From Massalongia carnosa (lineage: Eukaryota), in the NCBI GenBank assembly GCA_965645245.1, contig OZ287083.1, forward strand, positions 1,178,001 through 1,242,000: a stretch of 64,000 nt of DNA. Reading direction: 5' to 3'. The notes below the pieces were generated by a model. It ran no database searches. It had not been told where the DNA came from and saw only the letters and a list, made by a program, of their open reading frames with translations. Shown here piece by piece: positions 1-61,686 of the stretch. A program made the position numbers and the translations under genes. Position 1 is the stretch's first letter; each line of letters opens with the position of its first letter.

Positions 1-1013
1 GATCACGGCCAGTCTTTCCTTCATTGAGTCAAAACGGTTAAAGAGAGAGAACGTTCGTCGAACGTGTGGAGATACACTGTCTAGTTCATCGAGTCTACAG
101 GATTCCTAGCGCTTGAAGATCTGGGTGTATGCACCGCCTGGTAGAAGAACGATTTCGTTGCGTTCAATATGGAATTAGGGAGTGGTTTTATCCTGGGGGC
201 TAGGTTTCCACTTCCTGACTGTTTATGTACATAAATAGCAGTCACAGCGTCATATCCATAGGATGCATACGCTTAATGAATTAATAACAATAAATACCCC
301 CTTTTGCATCACACCCTTTATTAAAAAGACTAGAATAAATTCAAATCTGCGAGTAGTTGTCTCAAATCTTCAGTATCATCAACACATATAATCATTGCAT
401 ACTCACTTGACAGTGCAAAGCTTTGTTGTTATTGCTGGTTGCCCCTATTTCGCTAAGCTTCTTCTGATTAGCGTTCCAGCTGACTAACGTGGCTGCGATA
501 GCAAGTCTGAGCCGCAAAACTCAATATTACGGTCAGATATTCGTAATAACTAATGTATTATTGCGATATTTCAACATTTTGACGTCTTGCTTTTTCTTTT
601 GGCACGGCTATTTCTTCAAAAGAAACTCAAGTTTAATTTGTATAGAAATTTTCCTGAAATTCCTATTCGTTATAAAGTTCATGTGGGTCAATCTGATTGC
701 ACTTCGCATAGAAATCGAGAATCGACTTAACGAAAATAACAAGATGTATGTAAAATTGCTCTGCACGTTATAAACATAAATAAATGTTGAAATTTATAAC
801 AAAAAATCAACAATACATCGATCGTGATCATATCAAGCGACGACGATACAAACATGAAGAGAATGAAGTTGTGACGTTCTATAAGGTCGAAATCGTTCTC
901 GTCGTGATCGTTAAGTCATATTTGACTCGAAGAGAGAAGCTAGCTTAGCGTTGCGTTTAGCGCTGGTGCAAAAGGGGGTGAACACATTGACTCCTGTCCA
1001 AGCAATTTTTATA

Positions 1014-3786
1014 GGGTGCGGATACGGGCACACCCTATTAGCTACCTTAACACACTACTTTGCTACCTTCACACCCTACTTGGATACATTCACACCCCCG
1101 AAAAAGTAACCGCAAAAGGGAAAGTTTCCGCCCCCTTCCCTTTCCCAATTAGGGTAAGCGGCGCGAAATTTTGCCGCACCTGAAATTTCGCTGCATCTTT
1201 CGCAAAATTTCGTCGCATCTTGGAATTTCGCCGCAACCTTCTTCTTACTCCTGCAGAATGTCATCTTCCGATGACACGTTCAATGGTTTTGATACCGAAT
1301 CCAATTCTTCCGCTCCCAATCTCATCATCCTCGAAAGAGTCGCATCTGCCTCCCCTCCGCCAGCTTCTCCCCCTCCGCCAGCTTCTCCCCCTTCGTCAGC
1401 TTCAGCACCTCTTGCTGCTCCGGAAGAAGGACAATCCTTTGAGTCTTTGGAAGACTTGATTCAACGAGTCAATGAGCATGCTGGCCCGCGCGGTTATGCA
1501 ATTGTTCTCGCTCGTACGAAGAAGAATAAGGATGGAAATACGCGCAAAGCTTGGTTGATTTGCGATCGAGGAGGCAGAGTGAGAGAACCTCGCGGACAAA
1601 GTCGTCGTCATACTGCCAGCAGAGCCATTGCTTGTCCCTTTTCAATGATTGCGATTCGGGAAAAAGAGTCTGATATCTGGTTTTTGGAAGTGGTCAAATC
1701 GGAACATAATCATGCCTTGAGTTTGGCAGGGGCTCATCCAGTGCATCGAAAGATGGCTATCACCGCCGAGGTAAAAGATGAGATATCGCGTCAGCTAACT
1801 GTTCAGACTGCTCCATCGAAAGTGATTTCGAGTCTGCGCATACCTGATCTTACCACCGGAATCAATTGGGACGATCCGGCCAATCCTCGAGTCGTCAATC
1901 CCATGATCAAACCTCGAGACATCTACAATCTCAAGGCTCAACTTCGTCGCGAGGCTTTGGGACCGTTGACTCCCATACAGGCATTGATTCGAGAGCTTGA
2001 TCAGAGCGCCGATTGGTTGTATCAAATGCAAAAGAATGAGGAGGATCGCAATCAGATAACTCATTTATTCTTTTTAAAAGGAAGTTCCCGAACTTTTTTA
2101 AAGTCCAACTATGAGGTTCTGATCATGGATTGCACTTATAAAACCAATCGCTACAAAATGCCTCTTCTGATCATCAGCGGTCAAACCGCATTGCATACCA
2201 ATTTCTATGTGGCTTTTTGCTTCATGGCCAGTGAGACAAAATTTGACTACACCTGGGTTTTGAGGCAAGTCAAAGCTCTATATTTGCAAATGGAGCTTCC
2301 AGATCCGACCGTCATTGTCACCGACATGGAAAGAAGTCTGATGCTTGCTCTTCGTGCGCAATTTCCTCGTACCAATCATCTGCTTTGCATTTGGCATATC
2401 AATAAGAATGTCGTCGCCAATTGCAAAAGACAATTCAGCAAGGAAGAATGGGACACCTTCTTTGCGGAATGGAAAGCGATAACTTACGCCTCATCGGAAG
2501 TCATACTATGGGAGCTCTAGGGTCAGTTTTCGATCAAATACAAGGACTATGAGGTAGTGGAATATCTGGCTACCACCTACATTACTCATGTTCAGCATTT
2601 CGTAAGATGCTTTACCAATCGAGTACTGCATTTTGACACCACCACTACTTCTCGAGGTGAGGGAGGGCATGCAGTGATCAAACGTCAATCAGGAACGTCG
2701 ACCGGAGATCTGAAAACGGTGGTGGACGGAATCAGTCTTTTATTGATGAACGAGTATCATAACTATTGGATCAAATTGAATGAGGACAAAACGCGATATC
2801 CGCTAGATCTTCGGAAATCACTTTTCAGCAAATATCTCCATTCATCAGTACTAAAGCAATCAGAAGAATTAATTCTCAGTACGATTTACTGACCGGGAGA
2901 CCGACGGCTCTGCCAGCATGTACGAATTCTTTTACAACTAGCACCGGACTGCCTTGCAGTCATAGAATTCAGGAAAGATTGTATGGCGAAGGAAGTTTAT
3001 TGCTGGAAGACGTTCATCCACATTGGAGATTTGAAAGAAACGCTCCCGCCAATGATTTCAATCTGCTGATAGTGGAAGAACCAGACATTATTCGACCTCG
3101 TGGACGACCTTCGGGAGCGGAAAACAGAAGAACTCAAGCTTTCAATGCCTCTACGGGTCGACAACCTTCTCAATTCGAGCGAGTTATTATGGAGACGGCA
3201 GAAGATGAAGAGGTGCCAGCGGATGTGGAACGGGTCATTCGTCGGGCGGATCCAGCCCCGACAAGGGCGCGAGGCAGAAGAGCTCGAGCTGATCGAGCTG
3301 ATCGAGGTGGTGGAGATGCGCGGGGGACGCGGGGGACGCGGGGGACGCAGGATGCGCAGGAGACTCGAGGGACTCGAGGTGCGCGAGGGATTCGAAGAAG
3401 TGATCGGAATGCGCGAGAGAATCAGGGAGGTGAGGGAGATGTCAGAGATGGAGACGGCGAAAATGAGGGTTGAATGAAGCAGCGATAGATCAGGCAGGAA
3501 ATGAGGTAGCTAGTCTGCTTTAAGTTTAGTAGCTTGAAATCAAGGTGCGAATGGCCAACATGGTGCCAATCGACTCCGATTCCTGAGGTTCGAAAACATG
3601 GAATTTCTTCCTTCCCCATCTCAGGCGACAGAATTTCGCACCGCTTACCCTACTCGGGAAAGAGGGGGCGGAAACTTTTCCTTTTGCGGTTACTTTTTCG
3701 GGGTGTGTGAATTTATCCAAGTAGGGTGTGAAGGTAGCAAAGTAGGGTGTTAAGGTAGCTAATAGGGTGTGCCCGTATCCCGACCC
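1014..3786 (+). mobile_element. Mutator-like (MULE) DNA transposon with ~165-170 bp terminal inverted repeats and 8-bp target site duplication
   Basis: TIRs 1014-~1183 (GGGTGCGGATACGGGCACACCCTATTAGCTACC...) and ~3621-3786 (reverse complement, a few mismatches). TTTTTATA flanks both ends (1006-1013, 3787-3794). Encodes a MULE transposase. Confidence 0.93.
1258..3473 (+). pseudogene. MULE transposase, disrupted (FAR1/WRKY-like Zn finger, DDE core, SWIM-like Zn finger, AT-hook)
   Basis: Motifs CDRGG...CPF...HNH, MDCTYKTNRY, VIVTD, LCIWHINKN, TTSRGEGGH, CTNSFTTSTGLPCSH, RPRGRP. In-frame TAG at 2518-2520 (probably TGG originally) and a one-base frameshift at ~2821-2826. Confidence 0.88.
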
Positions 3787-3902
3787 TTTTTATAAACATC
3801 TGGAAATCCGTGAGACTTGAACCTTGTTGAGAAATCAATGGACCATTAGGTCGCCGCATATTGATGTTTAGACATAGAGTCAACAGGGTAAATTGACCTG
3901 AC

Positions 3903-47297: not shown

Positions 47298-49199
47298 GTA
47301 ATCGTCGGCTAGTCGCTTGCTTAATCCTCTCCCTCCAAGAAGCATTCGCTTCTAGTCGGGGAAAGCAAACTTCGTAGGAAAGCGAAGCTTCGTAGGCTCG
47401 CAACGTTAAACCACCACCCCATCACTAAAGCACCACCGTATCATTTAAATTACTATCACATTTATTATCACATTATTATATTATTATCACATCATAAACC
47501 ATTGTTATCTATATCTACAATAGATTCTGTATCCTTACAAACACGTATTAGTGATGCTAAAACATTCTTGTTGGAAAATCCTGACGAACGAACTGCATGC
47601 GCAGCTCAGATATTCAAAATTCGGCCTACAACGTTGTACAGCTCTATTGCGACTGATAAGAAATCTTCTTTTTCTGATATGAAATCTTCTTCTACCAAAA
47701 AGAGACGCCAAATATGCAGAAGGAGTGATTGCTCGAAAGCAAGAAAGAAATCGTTTACGACAAATTAAAGAGCTTTCAAAACAAGATCTTGCTATTTCCT
47801 CCGAGCATCTTATTCCTATTCCCGATCCCGAAGCAATTTGGAAGGCAACAGATGTTACTTGACAAGAAGAAGAGAGAAAGAAAACGAAAAGACTAAATCT
47901 CAAGTATATAATGAAGATGAAATCCGCATGTAACAAAATAGTTAACAAACTTCAAGGCAAGGCAGGTCGCAAACGCCTTCAAAAACCCACTCCGGGAGAG
48001 CTGAAGCACACCTGGGCCAAAAACCTACTGATCGACGCAAAAATCGTTCAACCACCCAAAGCACACCCACCATGGTCCGACCCCTCCCCAGCGCATCTCC
48101 GCGAAGTCTCCGTAGCAGCGTTGGCTCGTCAAAAACAAATTCAGACAATTAAAGCACGACAGCTGAAAGTCTGGAACGACTCGTGGAGCGCATATCAAAA
48201 TCGCGTCACCGAACCCTCCATAGCGCAATCAGTCCCACTGAGCAAAAAACGACTGAAAATACACACGCTGCTAAAAAAGGCAGAAAGCGCCCTGACAACA
48301 CAGATCCGCACCGGTAAGATCGGTCTAGCTGACTTCCTCTACCAGCGACGGGTCCCCGCCGTCACCTCACCGGCCTGCCCATGTGGCTGGCACAGACAAA
48401 CTCCAGAACATGTAATTATGTTCTGTAGACTTATTGACAATAGAGAACAGATGTTTCGCGCCGCTGGCACGAACAACTATCAACAGCTGACCGAAACATC
48501 AAAAACTCTAAAGATATTAACTACTTGGCTAATGAAAACAGGTCTACTGACCCAATTCTCACTGGCATCTACACTATTGTACAATTAACAGTAGTTTCAC
48601 TTCTCTTTTCCTTATCTCACAAGGCGTCACAGTTCTCACAAAATTTTCGCTCTGCGTCTCCTGTCCGACGTCGACCCGGTGTCACATCGGACAGGTATCA
48701 AGGGATATGGTTTTTACACCTGAAAAGGGTTTTCCATGTAACATAACTTAGATAGCTTTGCCCGCATGGGCCGGCCTACGGCCGGTGACATATCGGAGTA
48801 TGAATACATCATCATCATAATGAAGATGAAGATGAAGATGAAGATGAGGCGGAGACAACATTCATCACAGATGTTACAGGTGATTCTTCTTTGCAAAGAG
48901 ATTTCCTGCCATTTGATGAAGACGATACTGATAGAGGCAACGAGTCTGACAATGATGTACAAGAACAATTAGGATATTACAAGGTTTCAGCTCTTTATTA
49001 AAGCGGCAATAGTAATTTAACGATGTGATAGTAAATGTAATAGTAATTTAAATGATGCGGTGGTGCTTTAGTGATGTGGTGGTGGTTTAACTTTGCGAGC
49101 CTACGAAGCTTCGCTTTCCTACGAAGTTTGCTTTCCCCGACTAGAAGCGAATGCTTCTTGGAGGGAAAGGATTAAGCGAGCGACTTAGCCGACGATTAC
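47298..49199 (+). mobile_element. Internally deleted Fot1/Pogo-like (Tc1-mariner) DNA transposon relic with ~175-bp TIRs
   Basis: GTAATCGTCGGCTA...TTCGTAGGAAAGCGAAGCTTCGTAGG... at 47298 mirrored up to 49199. HTH-like N-terminus (AAQIFKIRPTTLYSSI) and acidic C-terminal remnants; DDD core missing. Terminal ACGT/TA degraded. Confidence 0.8.
47922..48816 (+). mobile_element. 5'-truncated LINE (Tad1-like non-LTR retrotransposon) nested in the Fot1-like relic
   Basis: ORF2 C-terminus QIRTGKIGLADFL...CPCGWHRQTPEHVIMFC, stop at 48588, 3' UTR ending in (CAT)n. 14-bp TSD ATAATGAAGATGAA at 47908-47921 and 48817-48830. Confidence 0.85.
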
Positions 49200-52591: not shown

Positions 52592-53383
52592 CTTCTAGTT
52601 CTAAGTTAATGATAACGGCAGGAGTTGAATGAGTTATGGAGAGTGGTAGCTATTGATGTATCTATAGAAATGTGTATTTTATGCGCATGTATACCTATTC
52701 CAGCTTGCCTATTCTATTCCGGACACCTTGTTGCCTAACCACCGATGGGCCCATCCCATCCCATCCATCACCCCCCACAAGGCTGAGTGAAGTTTGAGCG
52801 GTAACATACATATGAAACAGCGAGAGAGAGAGAGAGAACGGAACCTAGGTAGATAGGTAGATAACCGTATTTTCATCATCATTGGTCGATCGGTCGGTCG
52901 AACGATCAAACGATCAAACATTCCCCCTTGATTTTCTAAACAGCTTTTCGGAATCCCTCCGTTCTGTCCATCCGCCACTTCTCCCGCCAGAAAGATCCCA
53001 CCAGAGAGAAGCGTGCTGGGCTTGTTTTAACAGTTAGTCGAATCGACTGTATAAAAAGATCTGGAAAAGAGCATGCATGAAAATCCGCCGTGTGCGCGGT
53101 TCATCTTGCAAGTCTTGCATCACCGAAAAACGAAAGAGGGGGGTTGTTTCTTTTCATGATACCTCAAGGGACACAGCCACAGGTTTTTTTTTGGGATTTT
53201 GGTTTTTATATTAATCGGAGCGACAGTAAGACCATTTTGGATGAGACTAAAGTGGTCGCGAAAAAATGCTTCAAGTACATAGATGATAACTAGGGTGCCA
53301 ACGTAAAGACTCGCAGTGAATAGAACAGAGCGCATTTCCTGCAAATAAAAAATTCCTCCGAAGAAGATTTCAAGTCCTCCTAG

Positions 53384-54668
53384 TTAAGTCGACTCCAGCC
53401 TCGAGAGCCAATTGATAACCTGACGTGGAAACTCCCAGTTAGTCGCTTCCAACCCCGCCGTTCATGACAAGCGAAAATCATACATACCATCATGGCCTGC
53501 ACCAAAGCAACTTTCAGTCCGTAGTTGCTCCCGTCCCAACTAGACGCTTGCAGGGTGAGATTGTACATCCCAAGAGCGTCAATCTCCCGCGCGTGCGCTT
53601 CTTTCGTCATCTCTATCGTATAGTGCCAAATCGCGTTGTTGCCCTGGCTCAGTATTTGGCCCGGGGGTTTAAGATGCCCTGCTGCTGTGGGGCCAAGCCA
53701 GAGAAATGGAACGTTTCGAGTGGTGGAATCGGCCAAACCGATCCATTCGTTCATCGACGCGGTTGCGACAGGCCACGAAAGTGACGTTGCCAACGATAGA
53801 GAGTGTATAACAGGAACCGGCTTGTATGATTCGGGGTCTTTCGCCAGTAAGGAGGTGAAAGTGCTGCGATAGCTTTCTTGGGCGGGCGAGCTCTCAATAG
53901 GGAGGAACATGTGTGGAGTCCCTAAATGATTGTCAGAGCTAAGGTTTTGGTTTTGCAGCGCGAAGACACATACGGTCACAATAATAGGGACTCCGGTGCC
54001 CACTACCTCCGTCGTTGTCTCTGACCTCTTGGTGATTCATAATTGAGTACTTCAGGCATTCAGCCTTGATGATTTGATCATCACAGCGGCATCCTATACG
54101 CTCGCCCTCCTTCATCTCCCATTGCCTAAGGCCACCCATTGCAAAATTCTCTCGGAGGAGCATGTTAAATGCAGCATAGACATGTTGCAGCATATTATCG
54201 CCAACAAAAACTATCCCGTCGAATCGTTCAAGAATCATACAGATTTCCGGGGTTGAGTACCACCGGTACTGACATCCAACAGGAAAGTACGGCGTCTCAA
54301 AGCCATGGCGTCCGCCTCCGCTTAGGGCATCGAGAAGTTTTGCACGATTGTTACAATATGGGGATTTCCTTTGTCCATCCTCGTCGCGCAGTGATGGGGG
54401 AACGTATAGATCTGTTGACACAATGCCGCAGTCCTGGTGCCCTTCGAAGTGGCTGAAATAGCTTCAATACCCCCGTTAACAGAAAGCCTAAGAAATGACA
54501 TTCTGTAACTTACTCTCCAGCCGCATTATGAGAAAAGGGGAGTCTATCGGTTTGCATGTGTGACTTAGAGAAAATACCAGTCCACCACAAGAAAACGATG
54601 ATCGTGATAAATAGGAAAAGCACCGTGCGCCTAAAAGATCCACGGAACGACCTGCTACGAGCCATCAT
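53384..54668 (-). CDS. Conserved fungal type II membrane protein, possibly SGNH/PC-esterase-like
   Basis: N-terminal TM (TVLFLFITIIVFLWW), CQYRWYS...EIC, IVFVGDNM, SWDGSNYG. Three introns; final exon IINWLSRLEST*. Confidence 0.7.
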
Positions 54669-55075
54669 GTCTCGCGGAGCCTCAATGCCCTGAACATGTT
54701 GGGGAGTTTGAGGCGCACTTGCAAAGCGTGGGAATGGATAGGCCATGAGAAGGTAATGACAGGGCGTGATTGTGTAGCTGTTTCTGATTGCGTTGTGATA
54801 CCTATCGGTTGTGTTGAAGGCAGCAAACCAGGTATGGATACTTCCATGGGGGTAATGTCCATCAGGAACACTTTCTTCGCTTAAGTTTCTTCTTTAGGGC
54901 TACTAGAATCGACCGCTTAGCAATAGAAGGTAGGAACTCGAAAGAAGTTAAGGAAATGAGATGGGTGGATAGGTCAAGCCTATCTTTTAGAATAATTATC
55001 GAGAAGCAAAGGTAAGCACCCAGGTAAGCTAGTATATTGTTATGGGAAATTGCTGTACGCTATATAGCACGTTCA

Positions 55076-55376
55076 ATCTATGACCCTTATCGGTGCCGTT
55101 ACCTTCGCTTGCGCTGGGGGGGCTTTTAATTGGATGAATTGATTTGAATGCTTGAATTTGATTGGGCATGGGAACGACACAGGTCAGCCCGGGCAGGCCT
55201 AGGCACGTGACTCGGGGTCGGTGCTGAGGTGAGAACCTCATCTTCTAGGCCCGAGGCGTCTGCTGACGCTCAACGATCCGATAGATGATGCCCGACGGCA
55301 GTGCCCGACGGCGATGATCTAGATGGAGGTGCCCGGCGGCGCTCCGGATCGATGCCCTGGTTGACCTGTACGCCCA
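55076..55376 (-). repeat. Split direct repeat B2 (301 bp, identical to B1 at 55606-55906)
   Basis: Line-by-line comparison shows no mismatches (offset 530). Confidence 0.95.
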
Positions 55377-55430
55377 TCGCTCACTTAAGGTGGCTTCTAA
55401 CTAGCTATGAATCTCGGGTGGCCGAGGGTG

Positions 55431-55606
55431 GGGAAAAGCAGCAAGCACTGACAGCGAGGTAGGGGCACCGAGACAACGTGGGGTCGACGACGAGTCAGTG
55501 AGATGGATGAGGCCGAGTGAGAAGAAGTGGATGAGGAAAGAATTTTCAGAGGGTGATTCTTAATTTACTTTGACTCAGGGGCCTCACGTGACATAGAACC
55601 ATCTCA
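55431..55606 (-). repeat. Split direct repeat A2 (176 bp, identical to A1 at 59764-59939)
   Basis: Line-by-line comparison shows no mismatches (offset 4333). Confidence 0.95.
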
Positions 55607-55906
55607 TCTATGACCCTTATCGGTGCCGTTACCTTCGCTTGCGCTGGGGGGGCTTTTAATTGGATGAATTGATTTGAATGCTTGAATTTGATTGGGCATG
55701 GGAACGACACAGGTCAGCCCGGGCAGGCCTAGGCACGTGACTCGGGGTCGGTGCTGAGGTGAGAACCTCATCTTCTAGGCCCGAGGCGTCTGCTGACGCT
55801 CAACGATCCGATAGATGATGCCCGACGGCAGTGCCCGACGGCGATGATCTAGATGGAGGTGCCCGGCGGCGCTCCGGATCGATGCCCTGGTTGACCTGTA
55901 CGCCCA
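55606..55906 (-). repeat. Split direct repeat B1 (overlaps the YR stop codon)
   Basis: Identical to 55076-55376; abuts A2 directly. Confidence 0.95.
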
Positions 55907-57012
55907 ATGGAATGCCCAATTGAGTAGGGGTAGGAGTTTGTAGGATTCGTCTCGGCGACGACAGCACGTGGGACTGCTAGAGGGATGCCTTTTTGAAAAC
56001 TGAGGTTCAAATTGAATAGTGAGGCCTGGGACGTCTGAAAGTATAGCTGAAACGCGTTTGATGACCATCTTCCGAGTCTCTGAATACTCTCATCCAGCAT
56101 CCCGTGGTCGGCGGCGTGTTGTGCTGCTCCTTTTCTGAAGCTGTGTCCCGAGTATGCCGAGTCGTTGATGCCGACGGCTATCAGTCTCTTTTTCAGGGAT
56201 GCTATGACGGAGGCTCTGGTGAATGCGGTGCCGAGACGAAAAAGCGGGGATGTAGATGGTTGAGGATCATTTCTGAAAAGACGCCGTAGTGCTGTCACGG
56301 GGCAAGTGCTCTCATTGGTCGCTGCCAGCACTATCTGAACTCCTGAGTGATTTGTGTCTGTTTTGCTTCTTTTGAGACGTAATGTCGCGTATTGATCGTT
56401 CTCGGCGAATGAGATGTCACCTCGTGTAGGTTTCAATCTCTGAAAAGATGTCTTCTTACGATCAGCGACAGTGTAGGTGATTTCCCCGAGTCTGAGGAAC
56501 CCTGCCCATGCAACTTTGAATGTCGCGTCGATGTTGAGGTCTTCGGCCGAATGAGCGGGAATACTGGTGATTTTTGTCAGTAATTCTTTTGAAATGGGTA
56601 GGCGTCTTCTTTTTGTCTGAGAAAAGATCCTTTTTCCCCCTTTCAGCATCAATTGAAGTCTCGGCCCCTCGAATGGGGTGAGGCCGTATCCTCGGTCTAC
56701 ATGGTATGATCTGAGGCCGGCGAGGTAGCTCGCTGCCGTCTCTGGTTTTATCTTTCCCTGCTTGGGTGTGCCGCCCCCGTATAGTCGACCGGCTAGCCAT
56801 TCCTCGAGGGACTCGGTTGTTGCAGGCCACGACGTGCGTCCCGTCGTCGCGCAGAATGCCTCGTATGAGTCGATCGCCGTCCCGTACCCTTTTCTCGTGT
56901 CCGCCGAGTGTCCGTGCCAGACGAGACGTTTTACCAGGGCTGACCCTGGTGTGGAGGATAGGTAGGTGGAGGGAGGTTCATCGAATTGTATGGGTTCTGC
57001 CAATGAGGGCAA
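55849..57012 (-). CDS. Tyrosine recombinase of the retrotransposon (no ATG start; probably entered by splicing)
   Basis: N-terminal binding domain (TRKGY...YLAGLRSYH), AWAGFLRLGE, KRSKTD, CPV, GHSFRKGAA, LGRWSSNAFQLY. Overlaps the RT/RH ORF end by 82 nt. Confidence 0.93.
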   Translation of the reverse strand: MPSLAEPIQFDEPPSTYLSSTPGSALVKRLVWHGHSADTRKGYGTAIDSYEAFCATTGRTSWPATTESLEEWLAGRLYGGGTPKQGKIKPETAASYLAGLRSYHVDRGYGLTPFEGPRLQLMLKGGKRIFSQTKRRRLPISKELLTKITSIPAHSAEDLNIDATFKVAWAGFLRLGEITYTVADRKKTSFQRLKPTRGDISFAENDQYATLRLKRSKTDTNHSGVQIVLAATNESTCPVTALRRLFRNDPQPSTSPLFRLGTAFTRASVIASLKKRLIAVGINDSAYSGHSFRKGAAQHAADHGMLDESIQRLGRWSSNAFQLYFQTSQASLFNLNLSFQKGIPLAVPRAVVAETNPTNSYPYSIGHSIGRTGQPGHRSGAPPGTSI

Positions 57013-58634
57013 AAGTTAGCCAATCTTTCATCATCAAAACGTGACAGGGCATCTGCTAGTCCATTGGAAGTGCCACTGATCCATTGACAACGTAGTACGA
57101 TGTCCCACTTTGCAGCTATGGACAGTATTTCTCGTAGAGGCGCGTTGGCCGGTCCCTTGAGGGTTAGATTCGTGAATCCTGTGTATGCTGTGTTGCTGTC
57201 GGTAAAGACAAGGATCTGTCGATGTCGCCATGTCGGCGCCCATTTCTGAAGGATTAGAAGGATAGCTTCGACTTCTCGGACGTTTATGCTCGGTGATCCT
57301 TCCTGATTGAGGACTAGGACTCGGGCCCTACATGCGTTTTTTTGATTCACGAGCTCGTTGTCTTGTTGAAAATAGCCTCCGAGACCCGTGAGGCATGCAT
57401 CCGTATGCACCTTGATCGTGTCTCGTGTTGACGTCTCGAAGAAGACAATACCGTTGAAGTCCACTAGAAGTTTGTTCCACCAGATGAGATCCTGTCTGAC
57501 CCATGTGGGAATTCTTCTTTTGACCCGACGATGACTGCCCGAGGGAAATGAGGCTATAAAATTCCAGAATAATCGTAAGAAGACTCGGCCCAATTTGACT
57601 GCCTGTGCGCAGAAGCTTAGGAAGCCCGCTATTGACTGCATGTCGCCGAGGCTGATTGTCGTCTCGTTTAGTGCCTTTGTAGTGATGATTCTCGCTTTTT
57701 CCAGCTTGTCCGCTGGCAGACGAATAAGACTGTTGATGGTGTCGACCTCGAGTCCGAAGACTGTCGCTGTCGTTCCCTCGGCGTCTTTTGAGTCGTTTCT
57801 CGGGATGCCAAGAATGTCGGTGAGAATGTTGTAGGCTTTTGTTTCTTGGTGCAATCGTTCTGACGATGTCTCGGATGGGAAAATTGCAACGAAGTCGTCT
57901 AGATAGTGATGTAATCTCCATTGTAGAAAGGATTCCAAAATCCAATGAAAGCCTTCCGCAAAAAGATTGAAGATGAACGGGGCCGTCGACAGTCCGAACG
58001 AAAGGCATGTCTCGGTGTAGAATTCGTCATTCCATCCGAAACCCAGAAGCCATTGATGATGAGGTGCGACGGGAACGTTTCGAAAGGCGTCTTTGACGTC
58101 TCTTTTCACTATGACAGCACCTTTGCCCGCTGACAGAATCAATTGAATAATGTCGTCGAGTCTGGCGTATTGTAATTTGGATGCCTCTTCTGGAATGTTG
58201 TCGTTGACTGATGTTTGATTGGGATGAGACAGATGATGAATGCGTCGCCATCCTCCGTCATGTTTCGGGACCAAGCCGAGGGGGGAGGCCACAAATGGCT
58301 GACTCGGGGCGGCTATTCGTCTGACTCGGCCCTTCCTGAGGTCCTCTTGGAGCTTATTCTCGATCGTTTCCGGGTCCTCATTCGCTGATGTCAGATTTTT
58401 TTCGATCCGAAGGATGTCTGTGGGGCCTTCGTATCCGATTTGTACTCCGAAACGAAGGATCATGGGCAGATGGACTCGGAGGGGGCCCGGATACTCTTGA
58501 AGTAGAGTTGCCCATGCGGACGGTACGAGGGGAGATGGGCTGTCTTTCAAACGCTGACGAGATGCGTCTACGAGTTGAAACGAAGGGATTGTATTTGGTC
58601 TGATTGGTGCAGGTAAGCAGGGATGGGACGTCAT
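56931..58634 (-). CDS. Reverse transcriptase - RNase H (pol) of the retrotransposon
   Basis: SPLGLVPK...WRRIHHLS, DVKDAFR, LSFGLSTAPFIF, HYLDDF, FGLEVDT; RNase H TDAC...REVEA...TDS...ADALSR. Confidence 0.96.
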   Translation of the reverse strand: MTSHPCLPAPIRPNTIPSFQLVDASRQRLKDSPSPLVPSAWATLLQEYPGPLRVHLPMILRFGVQIGYEGPTDILRIEKNLTSANEDPETIENKLQEDLRKGRVRRIAAPSQPFVASPLGLVPKHDGGWRRIHHLSHPNQTSVNDNIPEEASKLQYARLDDIIQLILSAGKGAVIVKRDVKDAFRNVPVAPHHQWLLGFGWNDEFYTETCLSFGLSTAPFIFNLFAEGFHWILESFLQWRLHHYLDDFVAIFPSETSSERLHQETKAYNILTDILGIPRNDSKDAEGTTATVFGLEVDTINSLIRLPADKLEKARIITTKALNETTISLGDMQSIAGFLSFCAQAVKLGRVFLRLFWNFIASFPSGSHRRVKRRIPTWVRQDLIWWNKLLVDFNGIVFFETSTRDTIKVHTDACLTGLGGYFQQDNELVNQKNACRARVLVLNQEGSPSINVREVEAILLILQKWAPTWRHRQILVFTDSNTAYTGFTNLTLKGPANAPLREILSIAAKWDIVLRCQWISGTSNGLADALSRFDDERLANFCPHWQNPYNSMNLPPPTYPPHQGQPW

Positions 58635-58679
58635 GAATTCAGCTATTGAAGCTATTCTACTGCCTCCTGCACCAACCCC

Positions 58680-59693
58680 CTATTTCTTCGTTGGGCATGT
58701 CTTCTGGCCATGCCCAGCCGCGCCGCACGATTTACATTTGTGCTGTCGGTAGCACGACGGCCAGGTGCAGGTGCCGCTGTTGTACTTGTCGCAGATTTCC
58801 CCCGCTGCCTTCTCGGCCCTATCGGCCCTGTCTCCTCTCGGGGTCGGTCGCCGGGACGGCGGGGATCGTGAGCGGCGACGGCGTAGGACTGTGAGGGGGG
58901 TGCAGAATCGAGCTTGGAATTCGTCGGGCATTTTCCATTGGGATGCGTCGGATGGCTGAGACGCGATGATGTGAGTGTGGGTTTCGATGGCGAGGGGGAG
59001 GACTGCTTCCTGCCACTCGTACACCTTGGCCAGCGTGAGGATTTTTCCGTGGAATGCCGACATGGTGGCGTGAAGCTGTTGACTCGATTTCCCGAAAAGA
59101 CTGACCATGATCGAGGTGTAGTTGATGAAGCTCTCGGTCCAGACGTCATGAACTGTCTTTCCGAAATCTTTGTAGGTCCCGGATGCCTTTCTCAACCTCA
59201 AGGCGCCGTCTTCGATGCCGATGCGGTCCTGATCCTTGTAGGACTCGTATTGCATGCCGTGCATGTGTCGGAGGCGGGAGAGGTTGATGGCTTTGAATTT
59301 ATTTGAAAAGATCTTGATGATCTCGTCCTGTGGTAGGCCCGCGAAACGGGGTGCTATACTTCTTACTTCGAGAGGGATCTCACCTAGGTCCTCGTCGTCA
59401 TCGCCGACGACACGACTCGGCTTGCCAGCAGGAATGACGGCCGCTATTCGGGCGTCAGATTCTCGGCGCATGCAGTCGATTTCTAGCTGCATTTTTTCCA
59501 CCTCCTTCTCGGCGACCAATGCCTTGGACTCGGCAATTCTGGCCTCAGCCTCGGCCGCCTTCGCTTCTGCCTCGGCTTTCTTCTTTTGTAGGGCGAAGAT
59601 TTGATTGGACTGGGCCTGCGTCAATCCGACAATCTCCTGGGAGTCGGGGACTATGTCGTCCATCGGGGTGCTTTGGGAACGGGTGTTCGTCAT
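58680..59693 (-). CDS. Gag-like ORF1 (N-terminal coiled coil, C-terminal CCCH plus CCHC zinc fingers)
   Basis: ATG at 59693 (MTNTRSQ), KAEAEAKAAEAEARIAE coiled coil, CDKYNSGTCTWPSCYRQH then CKSCGAAGHGQKTC. Confidence 0.9.
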   Translation of the reverse strand: MTNTRSQSTPMDDIVPDSQEIVGLTQAQSNQIFALQKKKAEAEAKAAEAEARIAESKALVAEKEVEKMQLEIDCMRRESDARIAAVIPAGKPSRVVGDDDEDLGEIPLEVRSIAPRFAGLPQDEIIKIFSNKFKAINLSRLRHMHGMQYESYKDQDRIGIEDGALRLRKASGTYKDFGKTVHDVWTESFINYTSIMVSLFGKSSQQLHATMSAFHGKILTLAKVYEWQEAVLPLAIETHTHIIASQPSDASQWKMPDEFQARFCTPLTVLRRRRSRSPPSRRPTPRGDRADRAEKAAGEICDKYNSGTCTWPSCYRQHKCKSCGAAGHGQKTCPTKK

Positions 59694-59763
59694 TGGGAAA
59701 AAGCACCGACAGCGAGGTAGGGGCACCGAGGACAACGTGAGGTCGACGACGAGTCAGTGAGAT

Positions 59764-59939
59764 GGGAAAAGCAGCAAGCACTGACAGCGAGGTAGGGGCA
59801 CCGAGACAACGTGGGGTCGACGACGAGTCAGTGAGATGGATGAGGCCGAGTGAGAAGAAGTGGATGAGGAAAGAATTTTCAGAGGGTGATTCTTAATTTA
59901 CTTTGACTCAGGGGCCTCACGTGACATAGAACCATCTCA
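59764..59939 (-). repeat. Split direct repeat A1 (5' terminus of the element)
   Basis: Identical to 55431-55606. Confidence 0.95.
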
Positions 59940-61686
59940 CCATTTAAGGGGACCTCTATCAATTCCGTAGAAACCCACCATAGCGTGAATTCGTATCAGC
60001 AAGGTATTGAGAAACTGCAAAGTATATGAACTCACCTTCGTCGGAACGTATATACAAACTTGCTTATGCCATTCTGAAAACAGATTATCGAGACCATATA
60101 GCCCTCTTTGCTTGCAGGGAACCCCACCCAAGAATACACATCCTCAAGAAAAGAATGTATATTAGACATCACACCAAGTTTTGTTCATATTATGTCGACG
60201 CTGCCGACTCACAGCTTAAGCAAGTATTGTCATATCTTCCTTGCCTGCTAGGATTGCTTACATCTTATTTGTGTTTTCGGGGGTTTCTCATGGGCGATCT
60301 TTTGAGTTGCGTCCCAAGGTATGACTGGCGCACATTATCATTCAAAACAAAGACAAGTTGCGGCGCTTGCTAAGACCCTTACGAAAGGGGTCAACAGGTA
60401 AGATAAGGTAGAAGTAAAACAAAAGGCGTTGGAGAACTGGATATCTTGGACTATTCGATGTGATCCATTGGAATGAAAGCACTTCAGTCTGTAGACTCAA
60501 GAGAGGATGAGAATATCGTGAACTAGTTCTTCAATGTGATCCATGGAAAACGAAAACACTTCCAGCTTCAGAACTAACAGAGAGGCATTGTATTCTTAAT
60601 GAGGCAACAAACTGCCATATGAGAAGACTAGGTATTAACCCCGACAAAATAACCAGCTGTACCAACCTCTTTCCTTGAAACGTTTTTCTTCTGCAACTGG
60701 CAATCTTGATAAACCTCACGACTGACTACTCGTTCATATTTCCTGCCCTGAAGAGTTTCTTTTCTGGTTGGCTGTGATGTCAAACCCTTCACCGTCTAAT
60801 TTTCTCACTTCTGGAGTGTTGAGTAAAAATTTGAGCTTCACCTTTCACATACGACCACAGACTGAGGACATACAGGGTATCCCGTCCGCTCTGCCAACTG
60901 AAAACTCAGATCGATCGGTTAGTAATTGGTTGGGTGACCACCAGCGAATTCCGGTTGTTGTATGTTTTTGATTTTAAAAGATGAAATTGAAGCTGTTGGT
61001 AGATTTGTTGGGGCAGGATTGAGGAAGCGGTGGAGAGAGGGAGCTCGTATCAAATCACTTGGAACCCGATCGAGGTCGACCTGCATGCGGGCGTTCGGAG
61101 GATGCATTCTCTATGCGTCAAGTCATGCAAACTCAGGCGCGCAAGCTGCTGCGCACGCTCCAAGCCCGAATACTTAAACTTTCTACTAACCTCTAATTTA
61201 CCTGTTTGGTACCGTTGAAAATGCTATGGGTTGAGTGTTTAGAATTCTGAGTACTGAATACGAGAAGGATCCGATGTCCACCGGCGATAGCTTTTCGTTC
61301 CCCGAATGGCTGTGATAATGTAGTCATAATGGAGGATTACGATTCGACAATAAACGCCATTTACGATTTTGTTCCTGCAGCTAACTAACTAGTAGGCCCG
61401 CCCTCGGAAGCCATGCGGCCGAAGCTGGTCCGAGCGACGGATCCTTCCCCTGAAAATCTGCTTTTTGTTAATTCCCGATGAGAGAGCCGTACCGTTGACA
61501 TCGCTAATACTTCCGAATGTAGATCAATAGAGATCTATAGAGTAATCTGTTAGCATTGAAGCTAGGCAACAATGTTTTCCATATATGTGCCCAAGGGGAG
61601 ACCCGTTCTCCGGTTTGAGTGTGAACCAAAGGTTAAGCCAGACAATCGTCTTCGACTCGCCAGTGGCCCGCTTACCCAGCTCGAAA

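Follow-up and report, generated by a model that had tools for sequence, protein, structure and literature searches.

How are the overlapping and often ATG-less reading frames of tyrosine recombinase (YR) retrotransposons expressed? We found no paper that explains this, and the functional work that we did find concerns DIRS-1 only. The question is raised by an element on the minus strand of a 64,000-nucleotide stretch of Massalongia carnosa DNA (contig OZ287083.1; the whole stretch is called the window below), which an earlier note had taken for an intact, probably recently active retrotransposon of the Ngaro type. It is confirmed here that the element is real and that this observation holds. 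Our reading, to which we give a probability of about three in four, is that it is an autonomous, recently mobile Ngaro-type element from a long-resident ascomycete lineage and that it would make three proteins from one transcript. The layout, the frames, the Cre-like YR, the multiple copies and the insertion without target-site duplication (TSD) on which this reading is based are observations, while the mode of expression is deduced from conserved signals.

An Ngaro-type element that has recently moved

The features of the element are collected in Table 1. On the minus strand they follow the order A1-gag-pol-YR-B1-A2-B2, with a spacer of 54 nt before B2. The members of each repeat pair are exact copies, as had been claimed, and they are the sole exact long direct repeats within the window; the claim needs correcting in that base 55076, the first of the 301-bp B2 match, probably belongs to the host. 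One base at the boundary of host and element is ambiguous and may be either 55076 or 59939 (A on the plus strand). Split direct repeats of the form A1-ORFs-B1-A2-B2, where ORF stands for open reading frame, characterize Ngaro elements (order DIRS), and the same order is found at seven of the 16 relatives' loci examined (L013, L032, L047, L064, L067, L069 and L074). A gag-like ORF, reverse transcriptase (RT)/RNase H and YR also follow one another as in Ngaro. The element has no Pfam match to a protease, a DDE integrase or a methyltransferase at E<=0.1, again as in Ngaro, and a methyltransferase match was found neither in the window's pol nor in any of 28 aligned pol proteins. The two features that would mark a DIRS-1-like element, long inverted repeats and a methyltransferase, are not found in it, and of the two that would mark a PAT-like element the split direct repeats are present and the methyltransferase is absent. 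By every structural test that could be run the element is Ngaro-type, and its description as an Ngaro layout without a methyltransferase stands.

Gag begins with an ATG at 59693 and ends with a TAG at 58682-58680; its zinc-knuckle match is weak (E 0.022). The pol frame matches RVT_1 (E 2e-12) and RT_RNaseH (E 2e-4) and ends 40 residues past the last RNase H motif. In the YR frame the motifs R, K, H-x-x-R, W and Y lie at 56502-56040, the Pfam matches are to Phage_integrase (E 0.005) and SAM-like (E 0.025), and a structure model (predicted local distance difference test, pLDDT, 88.9) has Cre as its top structural matches (E 4e-10). All three ORFs are free of internal stops, and to this extent the earlier statement that the element lacks stops and frameshifts is correct. 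It does not extend to the relation between the frames: gag and pol are split by a TAG, and YR is in the -1 frame with respect to pol, with its first ATG not before residue 123.

Four of the 19 listed sequencing runs (X2, X4, X7 and X8) were compared with the window. X8, a lichen metagenome from a separate study, contains a 12-kb contig (record 25) that joins 55075 directly to 59939, and this is a base-precise empty site of the kind that the earlier note had proposed to look for; there is no depth over the element body in this run, and the flanks are about 99% alike to the window. Because the join is direct, there is a single ambiguous base and no TSD, as in Ngaro insertions and as the earlier note had held. 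In L069, too, a paralogous empty site leaves one base ambiguous. Contigs from X2 (records 2 and 5), which is possibly the same material as the window and hence not independent, share about 30 nt with the element at both ends and show no difference there. In X4, which is labelled as another organism, single element contigs have a depth of 201-272 and flank contigs a depth of 2.9-5.5. Since these low-depth flanks are identical to the window, we read X4 as containing the same fungus as a minor component, and the contrast in depth suggests tens of copies, although depth itself is no copy number. X7, likewise labelled as another organism, was rejected as evidence of transfer; it contains only the element, at a depth of about 2.7, as would be expected if traces of the same fungus were present.

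The corresponding protein clusters have 59 (pol) and 54 (YR) members on Mb-size contigs, counts to which several assemblies or haplotypes may contribute. All 14 pol members that were compared (3 full length, 11 shorter) are 92.5-99.6% identical to their representative, and the window's pol is identical to P0121, which occurs on 8 contigs. The family is young, mobile and multi-copy and has recently jumped; the X8 empty site and the near-identical pol cluster bear out the earlier suggestion of recent activity. Other insertion junctions, seen as loose ends at 55605-55612, vary in that the junction base is common to some and not to others, and two of them (X4, X7) carry 5-6 extra B bases after A, a pattern expected of staggered cuts across a short overlap.

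The ends of the element are those that would result from opening at the B1|A2 join (55606). This join is the predicted circle junction, and the match is consistent with a circular intermediate, of which it would be an indirect trace. A 6-bp inverted repeat flanks the join in the window. Inside the A repeat, at a distance of 5-20 nt, there is a CACGTG-type palindrome (59916-59923 in the window; also in A of L046, L047, L067, L069 and L074), which is a candidate recombinase or promoter site.

Table 1. Features of the element, in window coordinates; all are on the minus strand.
Feature	Position	Strand	Remarks
Whole element	55077..59939	-	4,863 bp; limits from the X8 empty site and the X2 contigs overlapping the junctions
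Repeat A1	59764..59939	-	176 bp
Near-duplicate of the 3' 65 nt of A	59701..59765	-	97%; in the leader before the gag ATG
gag	58680..59693	-	337 aa; coiled-coil/acidic part at the N-terminus, then a conserved core, with Cys/His knuckles at the C-terminus
Predicted phase-1 splice donor, G|GTGAGA	59378..59384	-	intron would start at 59383; shortly precedes the gag core
gag stop, TAG; predicted readthrough site	58680..58682	-	UAG-G context; in frame with pol
RNA stem-loop, long, right after the TAG	58599..58679	-	z -3.3; not kept family-wide
pol frame	56931..58679	-	582 codons; YLDD in RT, D-E-D-D in RNase H; without a match to a protease, an integrase or a methyltransferase
Predicted branch point, CTAAC	57015..57019	-	within Ala-Asn codons of the pol C-terminal motif
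Predicted 3' acceptor, CAG	56997..56999	-	coincides with the Gln codon of the pol motif; exon would start at 56996
YR frame	55849..57015	-	-1 relative to pol, 85-nt overlap; stop inside B1
Repeat B1	55606..55906	-	301 bp
Repeat A2	55431..55606	-	176 bp
Spacer between A2 and B2	55377..55430	-	54 nt, unique
Repeat B2	55076..55376	-	301 bp including the ambiguous base 55076

Candidate signals for the expression of pol and YR

The window was compared with its relatives. At E<=1e-20, 356 pol relatives were found among 8,000 scored proteins; of 397 confirmed stretches on metagenome contigs 80 were kept, and six more loci came from genome bins. The resulting 87 sequences, including the window, form 60 families at 80% DNA identity. 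Most of the statistics below use one locus per family, and the relatives so counted are not fully independent.

In the window, gag and pol are a single frame that is split by one TAG, with pol opening at the next codon. An open pol frame that follows the gag stop without a gap is also found in 29 of the 39 families that have a Cys/His knuckle upstream of pol. A looser knuckle pattern yielded 33 families for statistics on the stop itself, and in these the gag stop is TGA in 20, TAG in 13 and never TAA, compared with 20 TAA among 60 pol and YR stops (Fisher p 4.5e-5). Stop contexts of the readthrough type are UGA-C, UAG-CAR and UAG-G. They are present at the gag stop of 25 of the 33 families (UGA-C 14, UAG-CAR 7, UAG-G 4) and at 11 of the 60 pol and YR stops (p 9e-8); of these controls, the pol stops fall within the YR frame, and with YR stops only both counts are 6 of 27. 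Finally, the start of pol has no nearby Met in 16 of the 33 families. From this pattern we infer programmed readthrough of the gag stop. Several observations weigh against this interpretation. Ten of the 39 families do not show the simple adjacency (three are in frame with extra stops, seven are in other frames), and a Met is found near the pol start in 17 of 33 families, at residue 16 in the case of the window. Stem-loops after the gag stop are not enriched (5 of 33 families compared with 4 of 33 controls, p 0.46). Also, an in-frame gag-pol stop in Candida Tca2 gave no readthrough in a reporter test, according to a review (PMC7175516; this and the other papers cited were available in part, and statements about them refer to those parts). 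At L011/L013 and L018, gag and pol are in a -1 arrangement rather than separated by an in-frame stop. A weak search for longer, fused pol proteins found none at E<=1e-20.

A different set of signals is found where pol overlaps YR. The YR frame is -1 at 42 of the 47 scored loci (14 others, with no motif or no stop, were dropped), and it always opens at a stop in the Ala-Asn/Asp codons of pol, which spell a CTRAY branch point and then a YAG. CTRAY occurs at one position in 37 of 39 families, against a background of 64 in 1,400 windows, and the two families without it (L023 and the L067 group) are among those with a different YR frame. The Ala/Thr codon at the branch point ends in T in 35 of 35 cases, compared with 17 of 38 for the control Ala of ADALSR and 306 of 1,259 for all Ala codons; the next Gln is CAG in 32 of 34 families as against 201 of 504 elsewhere. 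In L017/L082 a TAG replaces this CAG; it ends pol but preserves the acceptor. The first YAG requires phase 1 in 28 of 29 families, and in 20 of 27 a phase-1 G|GT donor is found at a distance of 200-239 codons upstream of the gag stop, with none in phases 0 and 2 and at most one in any other bin. These donors align just before the gag core (a donor in L007 was discarded as spurious, since the gag core is not on that contig), and the predicted introns measure 2.3-2.7 kb in 12 of 13 cases, the thirteenth resting on a spurious donor; that of the window would run from 59383 to 56997 and comprise 2,387 nt. The signals are kept across relatives at 35-60% identity. They suggest that a single splice would join the N-terminal part of Gag to the recombinase (GagN-YR).

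Among 265 YR proteins, 134 reach the YR start and 21 of these carry an N-terminal extension. In the clearest case, P0295, a coiled coil and acidic tail are joined to YR, and identity to the unspliced P0214 begins with the residue after the predicted acceptor. The contig of P0295 has 2,222 nt and is too short for a 2.4-kb intron plus YR. P0348, P0376 and the gene models P0365 and P0368 look like P0295, and P0158 joins further in. Because gene models can invent introns, only P0295, on its short contig, counts as semi-direct evidence. Some points tell against a splice. The P0295 contig could be RNA, a processed DNA copy or a deletion, and there are small gaps relative to P0214; three families have a branch point but no near YAG; and 7 of 27 have no donor under a pattern that was itself chosen after the data had been viewed. 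The joints listed for the four contig runs, which are not on record as RNA, do not include the predicted spliced one. In the basidiomycete Ngaro-like Gags P0305, P0341, P0389 and P0365, a Gly likewise stands in the column of the donor, and one of the gene models is a GagN-YR; these protein-level observations suggest that the splice may extend to basidiomycetes.

The -1 offset at 42 of 47 loci would also accord with production of YR without splicing, either by a -1 ribosomal frameshift where pol ends, to give a Gag-Pol-YR polyprotein, or from a non-AUG start. At L064 pol and YR are in a single frame, and in the window the first conserved YR residues are closely preceded by a CUG in good context. 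A canonical slippery heptamer, however, is present in only 5 of the 47 overlaps and is not present in the window, and a slippery site at the pol-YR overlap was rejected on this ground. Nor would frameshifting explain the bias in the branch-point and CAG codons, the phase-matched donor 2.3-2.7 kb upstream or the structure of P0295, and we regard this route as improbable. A second possibility accepts the splice for YR and has Pol begin at its own internal AUG, by way of an internal promoter or reinitiation, instead of by readthrough. The Met residues already mentioned, the Tca2 precedent and the lack of a conserved stem agree with it. In the 16 families without a nearby Met, however, the first Met lies deep within RT (as late as residue 439, in L020), and the strict in-frame adjacency and the avoidance of UAA are features that an internal start would not need. 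This seems unlikely to us, if less so than frameshifting, and we favour readthrough of the gag stop combined with a GagN-YR splice.

Relatives, descent and host context

Named relatives are found in the ascomycetes Talaromyces stipitatus, Penicillium subrubescens, Aspergillus fischeri, Claviceps pazoutovae, Dactylonectria macrodidyma and Ascobolus immersus, and in the basidiomycetes Panaeolus, Pleurotus, Collybiopsis, Ustilago and Cutaneotrichosporon. The nearest, which are environmental sequences, are 52-60% identical, the pols of named ascomycetes 45-46% and those of basidiomycetes 31-34%. Two unrooted trees were made, solely of relatives found by search: a pol tree of 63 rows (quick search, midpoint root) and a YR tree of 50 rows, from which Ascobolus was dropped by a length filter. 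With pol, the window falls in a group of 33 rows that includes Talaromyces, Penicillium and Aspergillus fischeri and no basidiomycete; with YR, it groups with Claviceps and Dactylonectria, apart from all six basidiomycetes. Both groups have a value of 100 in the Shimodaira-Hasegawa-like approximate likelihood-ratio test. The relatives and the two trees therefore indicate an old, ascomycete-associated lineage. There may have been transfer between ascomycetes. The Eurotiales pols P0099, P0101, P0106 and L022, from three genera, are 83-90% identical, which suggests transfer among Eurotiales. No relative of the element was found in viral_contigs. Six relatives (L081-L086) are filed in bacterial genome bins on contigs of 2.7-4.7 kb with fungal-type splice signals; these, and the hits P0058 and P0079 with bacterial names, are probably mis-binned fungal contigs.

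These comparisons bear on two further possibilities. The earlier note had considered a horizontal acquisition, and a recent one from a basidiomycete or an animal would accord with the feature-based look-alikes of pol, which are mollusc, cnidarian and basidiomycete clusters, and with the absence of the family in X8, which is closely related to the host; this absence implies recent entry or expansion in the lineage. Against it are the identities given above and the two trees, which set the window apart from all named basidiomycetes. Since the element groups with Eurotiomycete and Sordariomycete sequences, such a donor is unsupported and we consider it very unlikely. It might also be asked whether a foreign element has been joined to ascomycete DNA in assembly, as the source material looks lichen-associated and is possibly mixed. 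Such a chimera, which the earlier note had named as a result that would overturn it, is scarcely credible: X2 contigs overlap both ends without a difference, the empty site is base-precise in a run of another study, and family members lie on many Mb-size contigs. The joins to ascomycete DNA are real. We retain the reading of a long-resident ascomycete lineage.

It had further been suggested that the element has so far escaped repeat-induced point mutation (RIP). A RIP signature is indeed not seen in it (TpA/ApT 0.47, substrate index 1.2), and the 34 distinct amino-acid changes among 14 pol members have a flat spectrum with no RIP pattern. This is not special to the element, since two transposon remnants in the window, a MULE and a terminal inverted repeat (TIR) element, are equally without RIP indices. 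Five of 86 related loci, in other hosts, are RIP-mutated. Between L074 and L023, 306 of 337 substitutions are C>T or G>A, 190 of them at CpA, which indicates that some relatives live in RIP-competent hosts. A pairwise test of L024 against L046, L067 and L069 gave no plus-strand alignment.

The element is flanked by a fungal rhodopsin-domain gene and a dispersed 5S rRNA gene (60847-60966, plus strand; Rfam 60.8 bits), the latter about 0.9 kb from the A1 end. Rhodopsin-domain genes and dispersed 5S genes are typical of filamentous ascomycetes, and the look-alikes of one neighbouring gene are Ascomycota, at a low recognition value. An apparent multi-exon membrane-protein gene with no Pfam match (53380-54700, minus strand) has the element about 0.4 kb upstream of it. 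The MULE (1013-3787) has 126-nt terminal inverted repeats (83%), and its transposase has a stop near 2520 and a change of frame near 2800. The TIR element (47311-49185) is non-autonomous, with 177-nt arms (94%), and contains an ORF at 47863-48588 with no Pfam match, which we take to resemble the 3' end of a non-LTR (long terminal repeat) retrotransposon.

Proposed mechanism, known systems and significance

In the mechanism that we propose, the unspliced RNA would be translated into Gag and, when the gag stop is occasionally read through, into Gag-Pol. From the spliced RNA, which would lack the 2,387-nt intron, the first 103 codons of Gag joined to YR would be translated as a GagN-YR of about 485 aa, and the coiled coil at its N-terminus could anchor the recombinase to the Gag particle. 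Following the published model for the order DIRS, RT/RNase H would then copy the RNA, the internal B1-A2 join would template the B|A circle junction, and YR would insert the circle. A finding that weighs against this last part is that mostly linear cDNA was found for DIRS-1 itself (PMC7192593). We think it somewhat more probable than otherwise that this retrovirus-like plan, Gag-Pol by readthrough plus GagN-YR by one splice of 2.3-2.7 kb, is used by Ngaro elements across a large ascomycete radiation, most of it unannotated, and perhaps by those of basidiomycetes too. Genomic RNA and recombinase mRNA would then be alternative forms and, because the splice fuses the Gag coiled coil to YR, the recombinase would reach the particle by its Gag arm.

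Simple retroviruses such as murine leukaemia virus (MLV) have gag, a stop and pol in one frame and express a downstream gene from singly spliced RNA. The gag-stop-pol frame is thus shared by MLV, Candida Tca2 (PMC7175516) and our element, but the predicted spliced product here is an integrating enzyme fused to the N-terminus of Gag, and the element has no LTRs, protease, DDE integrase or envelope. Among YR elements, PAT-like and VIPER/TATE elements (PMC6681497, PMC7192593) share the split direct repeat pattern and the YR; PAT, however, encodes a methyltransferase, and VIPER/TATE is kinetoplastid and has another gene order. The Ngaro of Cafeteria burkhardae (PMC8547959) has the layout A1-[ORFs]-B1A2B2, three ORFs and many copies and is apparently active, but its host is a protist and it is about 6 kb long; neither "splic" nor "frameshift" occurs in the available text of that paper.

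In fungi, Muszewska et al. 2013 (PMC3783388) describe Ngaro elements that resemble ours in having gag, RT/RNase H and YR, no methyltransferase and an A-ORFs-B-A-B layout. Their 177 genomes contained one truncated ascomycete copy, from Neosartorya fischeri (group 3, without repeats), whereas the window element is complete, multi-copy and polymorphic. The A. fischeri protein P0106, 45% identical and in the same pol group as the window, would appear to be this truncated copy. The same paper notes that YR can be in frame or frameshifted, and gives no expression mechanism in the part available. One complete Ngaro family, RYN, 23 kb in total, was reported in the filamentous ascomycete Zymoseptoria tritici (Grandaubert et al. 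2015, PMC4502367); the likeness to our element is by description only. There are also automatic Ngaro labels in Pyrenodesmia, Hortaea, Sporothrix and Z. tritici, and a 2026 paper still describes Ngaro as mostly basidiomycete. Because of RYN the novelty argued for the element shrinks, and with 356 pol relatives it is no unique rarity; it is a new member, not the first, among ascomycete Ngaro elements. The conserved readthrough-plus-splice plan appears to be undescribed: we found no report of readthrough or splicing in Ngaro in a search that lay outside Repbase and the two main reviews, where a prior mention is possible.

As a whole, these results give exact coordinates for the predicted readthrough and splice, both of which are testable. 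If the plan is correct, the YR protein would be a GagN-YR fusion rather than the product of a stop-to-stop ORF, and the young, RIP-free family would lend itself to the first functional assay of an Ngaro element. As a young and precisely inserting Cre-like integration system, it is also a candidate tool for fungal genetics. The 60 families among 87 sequences make Ngaro elements diverse residents of ascomycete genomes, and the plan, if true, would explain the expression of overlapping YR frames that lack an ATG.

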